Source: a virus (taxonomy: Duplodnaviria > Caudoviricetes). From it: a stretch of DNA of 28,920 bases. Made by a program: the position numbers and the translations under genes. Below, in pieces: positions 3,564-26,149 of this stretch. The notes under the pieces are model-generated. The model searched no databases and was not told the DNA's origin. It saw only the letters and a program-made list of their open reading frames with translations. The number at the start of each line of letters is the position of its first letter. The first letter of the stretch is position 1. The DNA lies in the IMG/VR virus record IMGVR_UViG_3300010361_000031, positions 1 through 28,920 of that record; one strand, 5' to 3'.

Positions 3564-4151
3564 ATGACTAGTCCCTATCCGCTGCAGTGGCCGCAAGGCT
3601 TCCGGCGTACGACGACGCGCGAGCGCGGCGCATTCCGGACCAGCTTCGACACCGCGCTGGCGAATGTCCGCCGGTCGCTGATGCTGTTTGCTCAAGACAG
3701 CGGACGCAAGATCGTCGACCCGATCCTGTCGTCCAACATGAATCCGCTCGGCGGCGAAGAAGTCAAAGACCCGGGCGTCGCCGTCTGGTTTGTTTGGGAC
3801 AACATTCAGGTCTGCATCGCCGTCGATCGCTATGCGACGCCGGCCTCGAACCTCCAGGCCGTCCATCATATTCTGGAGGCGCGGCGCACCGAGCTGCGGC
3901 ACGGCACCTTGCAGCTCGTCCGCGCGACGTTGCAGGGCCTAAGTTTCCTGCCGGCGCCGAAGGGCAAGCACTGGCGCGATATTCTCGGCATCGGGTTAGA
4001 CGCGCAGATTACCAAAGAGGCAATCGAAACGGCCTTCAAGGCGCGTCTCAAGGAGAACGCGCATCCCGACACCGGCGGCGATACAGAAGCCATGTCGGCG
4101 CTGAACGTCGCGCGAAAGACGGCGCTCCAGGAAATCGGCGCAATAGGTTGA
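3564..4151 (+). CDS. Phage DnaJ-domain protein
   Basis: N-terminal YPLQWP motif, DPGVAVWF, C-terminal J domain WRDILG...HPDTGG...LNVAR. Confidence 0.85.
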   Translation: MTSPYPLQWPQGFRRTTTRERGAFRTSFDTALANVRRSLMLFAQDSGRKIVDPILSSNMNPLGGEEVKDPGVAVWFVWDNIQVCIAVDRYATPASNLQAVHHILEARRTELRHGTLQLVRATLQGLSFLPAPKGKHWRDILGIGLDAQITKEAIETAFKARLKENAHPDTGGDTEAMSALNVARKTALQEIGAIG

Positions 4152-7092: not shown

Positions 7093-7283
7093 CCGCGAGC
7101 GAGGTCGGCGAGGTCGCCACCGCGATCGAAGAATCGTTCCGGCGCGAGCAGCGCGTCTCGCAGCCGGCTGCCGAGTTCTGGAATAAGATCGCGCGAGCCG
7201 CCCTTGAGCGCGTCGAGATCATCCGCGATCGCGGGACGAAAGCGCAAACCGCATCGCGGCGGAGGGGAGCAAAGAATGGCTAA
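7065..7283 (+). CDS. Hypothetical protein (72 aa)
   Basis: GGAG RBS, ATG 7065; overlaps the start of the TnpB-like gene. Confidence 0.5.
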   Translation: MAEPQFSWLTASEVGEVATAIEESFRREQRVSQPAAEFWNKIARAALERVEIIRDRGTKAQTASRRRGAKNG

Positions 7284-8544
7284 GCGCACGCGCCCGGTCG
7301 AAGGTTTTCGGCGTCGATATGTGTGGCGGCTCTATCTTACGAAAGAGCAGGTCGAAATGCTTCGCGAGCAGGCCGGCATGTGCGCCGATCTGTGGAACGC
7401 GTTGCTCGAAATATGCGAGGAACGCTACCGGCGGGCGGTGCAGCGCAACGGCGCATCGGTGAGCTTTCACTGCGCCGCATGCAGCGCGTTGAGCAAGCCC
7501 GGCAAGATCAGGCTTTGCGATGATCACAGACACCCGACCGAATTCGACATGGGATATTGGATCACGGCCATGCTTGCCGAGTGCCCCGAGTGGCGCGCAA
7601 TGTCCACATGGACGCCGCGTCGGGTTGCAACATCGCTAAGCGCAGCATGGGCGGCGTTTTTCCGCCGCGTCAAGGCAGGCGAAAACGCCGGCTACCCGCG
7701 CTATAAATCGCGACGGCGCAATCTGTCGATTCCGCACCGCTGCATCAGCGGGTGCCCGATCAAAAAATCAGATCGTCACGAAAGAAGCTGGGTTATGCGG
7801 TTCAAAGGCGTCCCAGGGAATGTTTGGGCGCGCGGCAGAGTGCCAGCTGCGGTCAATGAATGGACGGACGCCGACATTCGTCTTGGCGAGCACAACACGA
7901 TTTCGATCGCGGTGATTATCGACGGCCGTCGCGCCCCAGTTTTTCGGCCCGTGCCGGTGACGGTGCGATTCGATTTGATAGACGGCTTCGCCATCGTCAA
8001 CAATGAGCGCGTTAACCTGCCTGACCTCGCCAGGGTGAAGTCCCTGGATGATCAGCGCGCCGATATGCAATCACAGTTCGATCGCAAGTGGCCGCGAGGC
8101 CGTCGCTATAACGACGAGGAATGGCGCGAGCGCTGCGAATCCAAAACGGAGATTACGAGGCTGGCAGCTCGCATCGCCCGCATCCGCAACAATGCCCTGC
8201 ACGTGTGGAGCAAGCGCCTCGCCGAGGGTGCAAGCGTGATGACGATCATCAGGCCGCGCGTGAAGGAGAACACCAGAACGCCCCGCGGCGATAAGACAAG
8301 CTATGGTGCGGCCGTCAGCATCGTATCGCAGCTCAATCGCAACACGTTATCCTATGCGCCGGCAATGGCCGCTGCCATGCTGGAATACAAGGCAAAGGAA
8401 TTGGGAATTCGGTGCGAAGTCATCGACGACGACGCGCCGGATATAGCAATCGGCAGCAAGATCGTTGCCGCAGGCAAGGCGCTACGTCGCGCAAGTCGCA
8501 AAAGGAGGAGTCCGCATGACAGTTCCGTCCAAATCACGCGTTAA
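7276..8544 (+). CDS. tnpB: TnpB/Cas12f-like RNA-guided protein, predicted nuclease-dead (422 aa)
   Basis: GGAGGGGAG RBS; N-terminal RRRYVWRLYLTKEQ...DLWNALL (IS605 OrfB HTH), AWAAFF...GYPRYKS, RIRNNALHVWS, LNRNTL...MLEYKAKELG. The RuvC-I GIDxG position reads TVRFD, the RuvC-II E position reads TIIRP, and the Zn-ribbon and RuvC-III are absent. Confidence 0.88.
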   Translation: MAKRTRPVEGFRRRYVWRLYLTKEQVEMLREQAGMCADLWNALLEICEERYRRAVQRNGASVSFHCAACSALSKPGKIRLCDDHRHPTEFDMGYWITAMLAECPEWRAMSTWTPRRVATSLSAAWAAFFRRVKAGENAGYPRYKSRRRNLSIPHRCISGCPIKKSDRHERSWVMRFKGVPGNVWARGRVPAAVNEWTDADIRLGEHNTISIAVIIDGRRAPVFRPVPVTVRFDLIDGFAIVNNERVNLPDLARVKSLDDQRADMQSQFDRKWPRGRRYNDEEWRERCESKTEITRLAARIARIRNNALHVWSKRLAEGASVMTIIRPRVKENTRTPRGDKTSYGAAVSIVSQLNRNTLSYAPAMAAAMLEYKAKELGIRCEVIDDDAPDIAIGSKIVAAGKALRRASRKRRSPHDSSVQITR

Positions 8545-8794
8545 TGAAATGGTCCTAACGACACGTCCGGGCATTGAGGAAGAAACTGTACTCTTGAATG
8601 AGATGGTCGATCTCGCCCGCAAGGCGGCCGATGGTCAAATCGGAGGCAGCACGAAGCCCAGCGAAAGCAACGTCATTTTAGGCGCCGGTCGCTTGATCGG
8701 ATCGGTCGTCAAGCAGCACATGGCGAATCGCATCGCGAGAGCACGTCTTGTCGCACAGGAGGCGAAAACCATCGATCAGGACGCTGCCGCCTGA
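8516..8794 (+). CDS. 92-aa hypothetical protein between the effector and the array
   Basis: Strong AAGGAGGAG RBS (8502-8510), ATG 8516 inside the effector's 3' end, stop 12 nt before the first repeat. Confidence 0.75.
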   Translation: MTVPSKSRVNEMVLTTRPGIEEETVLLNEMVDLARKAADGQIGGSTKPSESNVILGAGRLIGSVVKQHMANRIARARLVAQEAKTIDQDAAA

Positions 8795-8806
8795 TGTCGA
8801 GTAAAC

Positions 8807-9780
8807 CCCGGCCCGCCGGGGAAAAAGCGGGAGAGCAAACCGGCAGGCGCGGCCGAGCTGGCGGCAGGTCACAACTACCCGGCCCGCCGGGAGAAAAGCG
8901 GGAGGCTTCGCTAAATCTGTCAGCGAAGCGGAGTGCCGTCCCCGGCCCGCCGGGAGAAAAGCGGGAGTGCCGCGCCGTCATCGCCAGTGTGATTGATTCT
9001 ACCCGGCCCGCCGGGGCAACAGCGGGAGGCAACTTTCGAGCAACTGGATATCATCGCATGCCCCGTCACAACTCCCCGGCCCGCAGGGACGAAAGCGGGA
9101 GATCGCCAGCACCGTTCGTGCGAACAGCTGCATTCCCTCGGCCCGCCGGGACGAAAGCGGGAGTGATGTGTCTCATTTTCGGGGACGCCTCAATACCCGG
9201 CCCGCCGGGGCAACAGCGGGAGGCCAGCGCGCTTTCGAAGCTGATCAGCGGGAGCCGATCCTCCGATGTCACAACACTCGGCCCGCCGGGGCGAAAAGCG
9301 GGAGACTGGGAAAAATGCTCGGCAGTCATGGTCCGTCACAACACCCGGCCCGCCGGGGCAATAGCGGGAGCTGCCGAGCCCCGCTGATTCACCCGGCCCG
9401 CCGGGACGAAAGCGGGAGCCGTTGATGGCGGTTACCCGGCCCGCCGGGACGAAAGCGGGAGGAGGAAATTCAACGTCGCGTCTTCGCAGCGTGCCAGCGT
9501 CGCAACACCCCGGCCCGCCGGGGCAAAAAGCGGGAGGGCCTACTGATCGAAGTCCTGGCGCAAACCGGAACGCGTCACAATTCCCCGGCCCGCCTGGAGA
9601 AAAGCGGGAGCGCAAGGTGAATTGACCGCACCCCGGCCCGCCGGGTTAAAAGCGGGAATGCCCGGACCAGATCAGGCTTTGACCGACCTCCGAGGCGGAA
9701 ATACCCCCGGCCCGCCGGGAGAACAGCGGGAGCCTGAGAACAGAATTTTCCGGCCCCGCCGGAAGAGTAATAAGCGGGAG
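8807..9780 (+). CRISPR. CRISPR-like array of 16 repeats; core CCCGGCCCGCCGGG-N6/7-GCGGGAG, unique spacers of 15-54 nt
   Basis: Repeat cores start at 8807, 8878, 8941, 9002, 9075, 9137, 9196, 9277, 9344, 9392, 9435, 9509, 9584, 9632, 9706 and ~9748 (divergent last unit). Six are preceded by GTCACAA/GTCGCAA, giving a 36-38-nt full repeat. Adjacent to the TnpB-like gene. Confidence 0.88.
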
Positions 9781-12482: not shown

Positions 12483-12580
12483 GAAGAAATAGCGCCCCAC
12501 TAGACTTTTTTTTTACTTTTTTTACTTAAGACACTGTTTTGTGATTACTTGCGCTTTAGCAAGTAAACCAGTCGATCGCG

Positions 12581-12609
12581 CTTGATATGGCGGACATTAT
12601 GTCCTATAT
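12581..12609 (+). promoter_or_regulatory. Sigma70 promoter with embedded operator GGACATTATGTCC
   Basis: CTTGAT-N17-CTATAT matches the rhizobial CTTGAC-N17-CTATAT consensus; 13-bp palindrome at 12592-12604. Confidence 0.65.
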
Positions 12610-12637
12610 TCACATCATCGAAAAAGGAGACCAGAAG

Positions 12638-15394: not shown

Positions 15395-15635
15395 CGTGAC
15401 ACCAGCATAACACCGCGCCGGCCGCGATTTACGAAGCCTTGTCAAATCAATGACTTAAGGCATGTCTGCTGCCGCCGTAGCGTGCAGCGATAGGGCAAAA
15501 CAACGCAGGAATGCAAACGAACCATGCCGAATGCGAAGCAGACAACCTGTTGTCGCACCAATATTTTCGCGTATAGTGAGGACACCGGCGGACACGCCAT
15601 GTCAGCTACCCGAGCGTGACATCTGCGTAACACCG
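15395..15635. other. Putative attP region with arm-type repeats and an IHF site
   Basis: 21-bp direct repeats CGTGACAYCWGCRTAACACCG at 15395-15415 and 15615-15635 (3 mismatches); IHF consensus AATCAATGACTTA at 15445-15457; immediately upstream of int. Confidence 0.6.
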
Positions 15636-22825: not shown

Positions 22826-22831
22826 CTGTGA

Positions 22832-22860
22832 CATTAGGACATAATGTCCCCTCTGTCGAG
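22832..22860 (-). promoter_or_regulatory. Promoter with a second copy of operator GGACATTATGTCC
   Basis: CTCGAC-N17-CTAATG on the - strand; palindrome at 22837-22849 in the same register as at 12592-12604. Confidence 0.55.
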
Positions 22861-22896
22861 CACTAAAAACGGCTCTGCGCTATCGCGTTGCGATGC

Positions 22897-24687: not shown

Positions 24688-25079
24688 TGCCGCAACATCG
24701 CCTCCAGCGCGGCGACGCGCGCAACCAGATCGTCGATTTCTTTTGTCAGATCGCGCGGGGGCGGCGACGACTGCGGCAGCGGTTTAGGCTGCCTGTCGGC
24801 GTGCGCCTTGAGCAGTCGCGGCAGCGCTGCGATCAATCTGTCGCCGAAGTCCCAAGGAACATCGCCGACGCCAATGATGCTGACTCGATTCGAGAAGATA
24901 TGCCGTCCCTCGGCCGGGGAATAGAATCGCTCCGTTGCGCCGACCGGCAACGGAGACATGTGCTCGCCGAAGTCTTTCGCGAGATTTTCCGGCAGGTCTT
25001 GATAGACCCCATCGGAGCCGCGAACGAATACCCAGCCATCGGGATGATGATGTACTTCGGCAACTGTCGTCATAGGCAC
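24684..25079 (-). CDS. Tail-fibre-associated hypothetical protein
   Basis: Directly downstream of the fibre gene; C-terminal coiled coil [13 protein letters not shown]. Confidence 0.55.
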
Positions 25080-26149
25080 ACCATTATATTGAGAGACGAT
25101 CGCGGGTCGAGGATCGCCATCGGGGCGCCTCCTCCGGCGGCATTTATGGCGCTTCTCGTGCCGGCTGGATAAGTATTCTGGCTGACTTGAATAGCGTCGT
25201 TAGCATCAAGGGTAAGATAGTTAAACTGAGTGGAATGAGCGTGATTAGCCAGCTCTCCAGAACTTTGAGTGTGCGTCTCCGACCCAGCAGAGCTGCCCAA
25301 GTTGCGCGAAGTCAATCCTGCTCCGGCCCCGGCGATGGCGATAGCCCGGCCGAGTGCCTTCGGCAAGATCAATCTGACATTGGCAACCCAGGCCGTTGAG
25401 GCGGTGCCCTGCGCCGCTCGCGTCGTCGCTCCGCCGGCCGAGGTCTGTATCGGTACGTCCGCATCGACGCAGACGTTATAGAACAGCGTAAACAGAGCTT
25501 GATAAGTCGCACCCGTATGCGTCGCGCCCGAGGTCGTATTGCCGATCGAACTGTCGTCCATCATGAGCCAGCCGGCATCGGGCGTCGTCTTGTAGGTCAA
25601 CTTTACGTCGCCGGTTGAAAACGGCGTTCCTGCTGGGCCTGTTGCGCCGGTCGCGCCGGCCGGACCCTGAACGCCAGGAGGGCCGGTCAATCCTGTAGCG
25701 CCAGCTGGACCGCCGATGCCAGTTGCGCCGATCGGGCCAGTGGCCCCGGCTGGGCCGGTTGCCCCGACGGACCCGTTTGTTCCCGCCGTGCCGGTTATGC
25801 CCTGAATTCCCGACGCGCCGACCGGCCCGGTGGAACCCGTTGCGCCGGAAGCACCGATAGGCCCCGTCGCGCCAGTCAGTCCGGTAGCGCCGACAGGTCC
25901 GGTAGAGCCAACCCCCGGACCTGTCGCGCCCGTTGGACCGATCGGCCCAGTAGCGCCGGGCGGTCCTGTGGAACCTGTGTATCCGGTCGCACCGACTGGC
26001 CCTGTTGGACCCGTAGCACCAACCGGACCCGTCGCACCCTGCGGTCCAGTCGGTCCCTGCTGAGGCACACTGATATTGACAGTCTGGACTCCAGGCGTCA
26101 GCACAATGCGAGGCGTACCAGGATCAAAGGTCTCCAATCTGTCCGTCAT
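25070..26149 (-). CDS. Collagen-like tail fibre with a tail-collar-like C-terminal domain
   Basis: Long G-X-Y run; [39 protein letters not shown]. Confidence 0.85.
25623..26056 (-). repeat. Collagen G-X-Y coding repeat (about 45 triplets, two interruptions)
   Basis: [12 protein letters not shown] triplets. Confidence 0.9.

Follow-up and report, generated by a model that had tools for sequence, protein, structure and literature searches.

A phage-encoded, TnpB-derived effector with a partner gene and a pseudoknot repeat array: a candidate module for RNA-guided silencing

What does a TnpB-like protein that appears to have lost its nuclease do in a phage genome, where it is followed by an array of repeats and changing spacers? 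The question is raised by a 28,920-nucleotide (nt) stretch of DNA, IMG/VR virus record IMGVR_UViG_3300010361_000031 (Caudoviricetes), referred to in full as the window, which is a fragment of a temperate soil phage (record 48% complete). Three parts lie in its + strand run of early genes (Table 1): an open reading frame (ORF) for the effector P0001, an ORF for the partner P0002 overlapping it by 29 nt, and an array that starts at 8807, 12 nt past the partner stop codon. The original prediction, made from the letters alone, had described these parts as a TnpB-family protein of 422 residues, an overlapping 92-residue ORF and 16 structured repeats with unique spacers, and all three descriptions hold. 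We consider it probable that this phage-encoded module serves the RNA-guided, non-cleaving silencing of rival temperate phages, and we rate the family as a type V-like variant of CRISPR-Cas (CRISPR, palindromic repeats that are short, clustered and regularly interspaced) without a matching published description in the literature searched. A sequencing run from another study, X2, covers 7505-8526 with zero differences from the window and carries other spacers behind intact repeat cores; the locus is therefore no assembly artefact, and array content differs among near-identical phages.

The AlphaFold model of P0001 (predicted local distance difference test score 93.5) is closest in fold to ISDra2 TnpB (Z 21.3, root-mean-square deviation 5.1 over 310 residues; Foldseek E 3.9e-14), with Cas12f (Z 16.5) and Cas12m (Z 14.6 or less) behind. 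Pfam recognises the TnpB N-terminal helix-turn-helix (HTH) domain (E 3e-8), and NF040570 matches at E 5e-21, under that model's curated cut-off. A sequence-profile search of the PDB placed RdCas12n (9J09) nearest (E 1.1e-14), while phmmer with P0001 alone retrieved zero PDB chains. Both its modelled WED-REC-RuvC fold and its sequence profile put P0001 in the TnpB/Cas12 superfamily. Its close relatives number 107, followed by a sharp fall to ordinary TnpBs, and when a profile search is followed down to E 6e-47 the family comes to at least 150 clusters at 50% identity. A quick tree, in which 31 family rows are set with 12 TnpBs, was computed without bootstrap and contains no Cas12m or Cas12n sequence; in it the family is a single clade (Shimodaira-Hasegawa-like approximate likelihood ratio test, SH-aLRT, 100). 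An independent TnpB-to-CRISPR transition, as originally proposed, is thus supported to the extent of one clade set against TnpB, but some 50 such transitions have been inferred and inactivation is recurrent (PMC12669027), so a transition alone would not be surprising.

The catalytic parts separate the family from TnpB. The RuvC-II Glu is kept in 4/233 family rows and the C4 zinc finger in 1/225, each against 9/9 TnpBs, and a segment of 48 residues comprising the zinc finger and RuvC-III is absent from P0001 by deletion. For RuvC-I the alignments give two registers: hhalign and one MAFFT run set R231 against the catalytic Asp (Asp in 11/228 rows), while a second MAFFT run and HMMER set D233 there (Asp in 165/226 rows). 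We favour the first because position 233, where 22% of rows have Gly or Asn in place of Asp, varies as a turn residue would, and the RuvC-I Asp has most likely been replaced by R231. Whichever register is taken, at least two of the three catalytic residues are lost on these alignments, in line with the nuclease-dead effector first proposed. The second register, and the conservation of D236 in 184/225 rows, by which a rearranged metal site is possible, speak against a purely binding effector.

Of 43 distinct loci whose DNA extends far enough (17 of the 65 fetched loci being excluded as duplicates or non-family), 41 carry the partner behind the effector according to a profile built from 31 partners, among them 11 of the 13 loci left out of profile building; the profile has no further matches elsewhere in ten phage records. 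Effector stop and partner start codons overlap in most loci. P0002 is predicted as two long helices and has no match in Pfam, PHROG, Atlas or Foldseek searches. From gene coupling alone we infer that the partner is a subunit of the effector complex; a prediction of the complex itself scored 0.00, which weighs neither for nor against. The near-constant partner could also be taken, along with D233, D236 and D385 (Asp in 73%, 82% and 62% of rows) and the RecE-like and excisionase-like genes upstream on the same strand, as a sign that the complex nicks DNA or cuts RNA through these residues, or that the partner recruits a recombination enzyme, or another one of host or phage, to the bound site, as other dead Cas12s recruit partners (PMC11656645). 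We find this doubtful, given the pattern at position 233, which would suit a turn Gly better than a catalytic Asp. No transposase or sigma factor was seen beside the module, nor any Tn7-like or Mu transposase adjoining the effector among the window ORFs scanned, and near-perfect self-matches persist in a related locus, L074, described below.

The case for silencing by guided binding rests next on the array. Fifteen clear cores of 27-28 nt lie at 8807-9732, and a degenerate sixteenth ends at 9780; the stretches between cores, 16-54 nt long, are all unique. The full repeat of about 36 nt consists of a 9-nt 5' part and the core, and is retained in six of the 15 clear units (2, 5, 8, 9, 12 and 13); unit 15 has a variant 5' part, and the other eight lack it, starting 1-2 nt ahead of the core. 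An alignment of 26 repeats, taken from the window and from 18 other loci (two slightly misaligned rows kept), has 234 cells for two stems, one of 4 bp and a pseudoknot stem of 5 bp; 98.3% of the cells are paired, and 5/9 pairs show two-sided changes. The score was reached by 0/500 shuffles, and slid controls gave 27-51%. The pseudoknot thus covaries, and in 18 other loci it stands beside homologues of the effector, a check that the original prediction had asked for. An Rfam scan gave no match at E below 0.9. Counted back from the guide, the repeat shows A(-2), a second stem of -3 to -7 with -18 to -22, G(-23) and a 36-nt unit. The repeat of Cas12m2, likewise of 36 nt, shares both A(-2) and G(-23) and has a pseudoknot stem at its 3' end, with the first 7 nt disordered (PMC10442227), and the window's repeat can no longer be called unfamiliar.

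Relatives carry regular arrays with a period of about 73, and in 14/15 of these a leader motif stands 52-55 nt ahead of the first repeat; a second copy lies at 130-142 in 10/15 loci, with an inverted partner further upstream. Type I-D leaders have, some 50 bp ahead of the first repeat, a motif by which acquisition is promoted (PMC6607411), the position being the same and the sequence different. The window array has none of the relatives' leader motifs. By this comparison the absence of a leader is a loss in the window phage and not a family trait, and the irregular spacing, which was expected to hide the system from CRISPR finders, likewise belongs to the window phage. The associated claim that tnpA and cas genes are missing agrees with the absence of matches among 30 window ORFs scanned with Pfam and 28 with PHROGs, in a record that is 48% complete. 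Neither was Cas1 found in five phage records searched, four of them with terminal repeats, and acquisition by host Cas1-Cas2 is therefore suggested. Promoter and terminator counts were no better than chance level, and none of the eight runs listed as carrying the sequence is RNA, so that they have no bearing on expression.

Leader loss and irregular spacing, a recombined unit at 9223-9276 with an extra repeat end, and the repeat units scattered through the records G001 and G005 and the locus L027 are what one would expect if the family were functional elsewhere and the window array were in decay, or consisted of selfish repeats that hardly serve as guides. This is very unlikely in our estimate: the cores keep both stems while the spacers change, both genes are intact, X2 has other spacers behind intact cores, and two guides (7 and 12) retain TTC-flanked targets. 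Some further features of the arrays deserve mention. Guide 2 (8905-8928) holds an 8-bp inverted repeat and would fold on itself, and X2 has a 15-nt insertion directly after it. In the L018 array one 20-nt spacer is present twice, and the reverse complement of a 17-nt spacer after 9671 resembles a ribosome-binding site and ATG. L111 (contig C206 of G011, ~15504-15535) is a lone pseudoknot repeat that has a leader-like motif upstream of it and no effector within 1.5 kb; the same metagenome-assembled genome (MAG) holds L073.

The targets of the guides also bear on silencing of rival phages. The match of guide 12 in run X3, which is other soil DNA, starts with the guide's first base, and TTC precedes it. 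Translated, the guide reads GLLIEVLAQTGT and aligns in register with the equivalent part of the window's integrase, which we take to be the catalytic Arg motif of a tyrosine-integrase-like protein; it is identical to the window's own stretch at only 23/37 positions and therefore points at a relative. Guide 7 matches the window itself after TTC, with a perfect 9-nt seed and three mismatches, in a gene upstream of the effector on the same strand whose PHROG is of function not known. As a control, the 16 guides were shuffled in 300 rounds and compared with 940 TTC sites; no round gave a best match above 18. L074 matches its own contig twice, through spacer 5 (35/36 positions, after TTC) and spacer 2 (39/39). 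Endolysin and virion genes are found on that contig, and one of the two self-matches lies in a virion-protein gene. The persistence of such near-perfect self-matches favours a non-cutting system, since a cutter would be expected to remove them. Among 134 guides, two of the eight matches at 18/20 or better (guide 7 and L074) follow TTC, where 0.12 would be expected. TTC is the candidate protospacer-adjacent motif (PAM). Several Cas4-linked type I systems also use it as a PAM, and it is compatible with the TTN PAM of Cas12m. Together, the integrase-like target and the near-match to an early gene suggest that the rivals are temperate phages of this phage's own kind.

A second way to read these matches is that the module is mainly a regulator like TldR, with guides repressing the phage's own or host genes through short seeds; guide 7, for one, would throttle the phage's early operon. 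The seed of guide 7 beside TTC in a same-strand upstream gene and its retention in X2, the self-matches of L074, the many window and X2 spacers of only 15-24 nt, and the precedent of one TldR for which a 9-nt guide is enough (PMC13622181) all fit. Against this, the three mismatches in 24 of guide 7 are as for a spacer from a relative, guide 12 is directed elsewhere than at the integrase of its own phage, and spacers differ between near-identical phages. Nine whole phage records, with 181 unique spacer-position sequences, gave 0 self-matches outside repeat units; apparent self-matches in G001 turned out to be scattered repeat copies. We judge a mainly regulatory role unlikely.

Several observations nevertheless count against silencing of rivals. 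Only two of the 16 window guides, 7 and 12, have a target and the other 14 are matchless; the candidate PAM rests on three sites, with one further match (L074 spacer 2) lacking an adjacent TTC, and at 16/20 identity TTC is not clearly enriched (8/283 matches, 4.4 expected). Of the three targets beside TTC, two are on the contig of the phage that carries the guide, as self-regulation would also have it, and the third, in X3, is a single short contig of depth 2.7. The search for spacer targets, proposed at the outset, thus gave one each for guides 7 and 12, in the window itself and in X3, and none in phage, plasmid, bacterial and viral collections. For the window array no usable target was found in the phage collection, only three weak matches (E 1) among plasmids, and matches in six of 401 genomes of G011's order, none a guide target; on inspection these proved to be solitary repeat-like copies or were not anchored at the guide start. 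The L014 and L018 arrays had no usable target in phages, the L018 array only two weak matches in 301 genomes, and the L073 and L075 arrays only weak matches in four MAGs; four single 20-nt spacers searched against viral contigs were each found only in their own array.

With these points taken into account, we still prefer guided silencing of rival temperate phages, which could work as follows. The operon transcript would run into the array and be cut inside the repeat, about 29 nt before each guide, and the effector, probably with the partner, would be loaded with the handle and the next 16-37 nt as guide. The guide RNAs would then bind DNA beside the predicted 5'-TTC and block RNA polymerase, as Cas12m and TldR do. 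Spacers may first have been written by host Cas1-Cas2 via the leader seen in relatives; the window phage, its leader lost, would now mostly gain and lose whole repeat-spacer units.

How does the family compare with known systems? An array behind a RuvC-fold effector, the general trait of type V, is present in the window and 18 other loci. Cas12m (V-M, V-U1), which silences by binding (PMC11013384) and occurs on plasmids and some prophages (PMC11656645), shares the non-cleaving character predicted for P0001 and an array without cas1/cas2 as well as the repeat features given above (PMC10442227). The Cas12m chains in PDB 8HHL and 8PM4 are, however, about 590-600 residues long with a REC roof insertion, a zinc finger and a D/H/N-D/E-D triad, whereas P0001 has 422 residues, neither zinc finger nor triad, and a partner gene; the PADLOC model Cas12u1 (PDLC00930) matches 0/31 family rows and only two outgroup TnpB rows. 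In size, zinc finger, triad and profile the effector is not a Cas12m, and the likeness of the RNA looks convergent or borrowed. A further close system is Cas12n (V-N, V-U4; 9J09) with its sister IS200/IS605 TnpBs. The nuclease of Cas12n is active, its PAM is A-rich, and it works with a long guide that is tracr-based. Cas12n has in common with P0001 an insert before the RuvC-II helix, and PADLOC Cas12u4 matches 35/35 rows (E 1.3e-15), but the family is missing the catalytic residues and the zinc finger, and the window's clade has a self-contained repeat. The module also differs from the transposon-linked dead Cas12s, Cas12k and CasMu-V, in that no such transposase was seen next to it, and no Cas12k model was among the matches of an NCBIfam scan of 35 rows.

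TldR is a dead TnpB, prophage-borne in one clade, that represses transcription (PMC13622181), using one guide RNA with a fixed target; the word 'array' occurs 0 times in the main text of that report. A dead RuvC is shared, with RuvC-I of ambiguous register here, while the module has a multi-unit, changing array and, in relatives, a leader, and because of the array the family is not TldR. From the TnpB of IS200/IS605 it differs in lacking the D-E-D triad, the C4 zinc finger and any tnpA seen, and in having a 16-unit array instead of one omegaRNA. By these feature comparisons the effector stands apart from Cas12m, active Cas12n and TldR, as the original prediction had anticipated for the defined subtypes. 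Of V-U groups 40 have been defined. V-U24, V-U43 and V-U44, together with V-O and V-P, have inactivated or non-canonical RuvC domains beside arrays, and V-U24 has a small associated protein, called HTH (PMC10691335), whereas P0002 is a predicted helical hairpin without HTH match. A viral clade of 19 sequences without RuvC motifs has a representative of 474 residues (PMC12607003); a motif search of its supplements gave no match. Judged by their descriptions, V-U24, V-U43/44, V-O, V-P or this viral clade may overlap with the family. Of the other multi-component Cas12 loci described in the accessible part of PMC10910872, none has the module's layout, and literature searches, to which subscription journals, Zenodo data and bioRxiv supplements were out of reach, returned no account of an effector-partner-pseudoknot family. 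Type III toxin-antitoxin repeats were considered and rejected, as the spacers are unique and match DNA targets.

Phages also carry RuvC-dead Cas9 with a proposed anti-CRISPR role (PMC11656645), and the repeats of some basal relatives of P0001 belong to other types; by analogy, host Cas proteins or CRISPR RNAs (crRNAs) might be occupied by the module's RNAs or by its dead effector, acting as decoys. Within the effector tree, however, only a derived part has the self-contained pseudoknot repeat, and the spacers match DNA of phage type with a shared flank. For these reasons we regard a decoy role as highly improbable.

How silencing guides would be renewed on phages is a further question, on which repeat units outside the arrays have some bearing. 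In G001, G002, G004 and L027 the main arrays are uniform and further units lie away from them, and in G005 one unit inside the effector gene adds about 24 codons in frame. In 11/12 scattered clusters (the G001 terminal-repeat duplicate taken once) the first unit is without the 5' part (<=4/7 bases), whereas later units of the same G001 clusters retain it. The shared 5' end of the truncated units is near the predicted Cas12m-like handle cut site. They may stem from processed RNA copied to DNA, a short-ruler integrase, core recombination or the deletion of bases no longer needed; no RVT_1 reverse transcriptase was found in five records, which leaves phage-encoded reverse transcription unsupported as the cause.

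In the loop after RuvC-I, basal rows of the tree show a 5-7-bp hairpin, for which most individual z-scores are weak; often an array within the effector reading frame comes next. In-gene periods are multiples of three in 22/22 cases from 7 loci, against 27/92 for external arrays, and a repeated 5-mer occurs in the region after RuvC-I in 56/225 proteins against 9/239 in a control region. The same hairpin lies 3' of the partner gene in loci with arrays of 60-66-nt period, periods that we take to resemble type I-E and I-C arrays. It is conceivable, and we put it forward tentatively, that guide units are mobile, cassettes with their start at the predicted crRNA processing site being copied across the phage genome and even in frame into the effector, and that this forms a leader-free route to new guides. 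The family would then be a large, phage-specific one of two-protein, non-cutting binders of DNA, and in its range from in-gene forms with scaffold and array to a single pseudoknot repeat it would record how a Cas12m-like crRNA arises anew. Beside these arrays we noted that the 3' tail of the hairpin RNA in L043, L045, L046, L069 and L060 looks complementary to the repeat end by eye, and that the in-gene cassette of L022 recurs behind the partner gene. Behind the L064 partner (~1590-2210), a scaffold hairpin precedes a long run of very short units in which a word of 7-10 nt recurs between spacers of ~10-17 nt, possibly a minimal guide array. The phage record holding L015, G006, has a second weak TnpB-like match near 55526 (E 1.7e-8).

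Table 1 Coordinates of the module, its guides and related features (positions are those of the window unless a record or locus is named)
Feature	Position	Strand	Remarks
TnpB/Cas12-like effector P0001, 422 aa	7276..8544	+	RuvC-II Glu replaced by I325; 48-aa zinc finger + RuvC-III deleted; RuvC-I Asp most likely R231
Partner P0002, 92 aa	8516..8794	+	predicted helical hairpin; overlaps effector 3' end
Array, 16 pseudoknot repeat units, unique spacers	8807..9780	+	no leader
Guide 7	9223..9246	+	21/24 nt to window 3661-3638 (- strand), 5'-TTC adjoining
Guide 12	9537..9574	+	35/38 nt to 328-nt non-array contig of run X3, 5'-TTC adjoining
Guide 7 near-match target + TTC	3638..3664	-	inside 195-aa early gene 3564-4151 (PHROG 9210)
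Scattered units, G001	98, 4538, 4919, 13213, 37570		
Scattered units, G002	23480, 26442		
Scattered units, G004	43808-43936		
Scattered units, G005	63158		many; this one inside effector gene
Scattered units, L027	1912, 2886, 8244, 11393		
In-frame array in effector gene, L022	5431-5706		
In-frame array in effector gene, L054	7634-8020		
In-frame array in effector gene, L056	1314-1925		
In-frame array in effector gene, L063	7880-8176		
In-frame array in effector gene, L064	472-915		
In-frame arrays in effector gene, L077	1625-1912 and 2108-2401		two arrays
Array of 60-61-nt or 66-nt period + short hairpin RNA, L043	3930-4260		
Array of 60-61-nt or 66-nt period + short hairpin RNA, L045	1050-1480		
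Array of 60-61-nt or 66-nt period + short hairpin RNA, L046	8390-8850		
Array of 60-61-nt or 66-nt period + short hairpin RNA, L069	580-900		
Array of 60-61-nt or 66-nt period + short hairpin RNA, L060	1090-1380		

Beyond the module, Pfam and PHROGs assign to the window a RecE-like exonuclease, an excisionase-like protein, an integrase, an amidase and tail genes. A pair of 35-nt inverted repeats (12580-12614 and 22827-22861, 77% complementary, 10.2 kb apart) flanks a block of small genes including the integrase and could represent operators or attachment-like sites, and a collagen-like repeat protein (25070-26149, - strand; PF01391) lies amid the tail genes.

If guided silencing by this module is confirmed, it would be among the smallest natural multiplexed CRISPR interference systems, with an effector of about 420 residues, a partner of 90 residues and a handle of 27-36 nt. 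No trans-activating CRISPR RNA (tracrRNA) was seen in the window's clade, and the effector may be useful as a compact binder. For temperate soil phages the module would offer a mechanism of competition. With at least 150 clusters at 50% identity, the family may hold several stages of guide-RNA evolution in one tree, and it bears on how arrays arise beside TnpB and on how phages without Cas1 gain guides.

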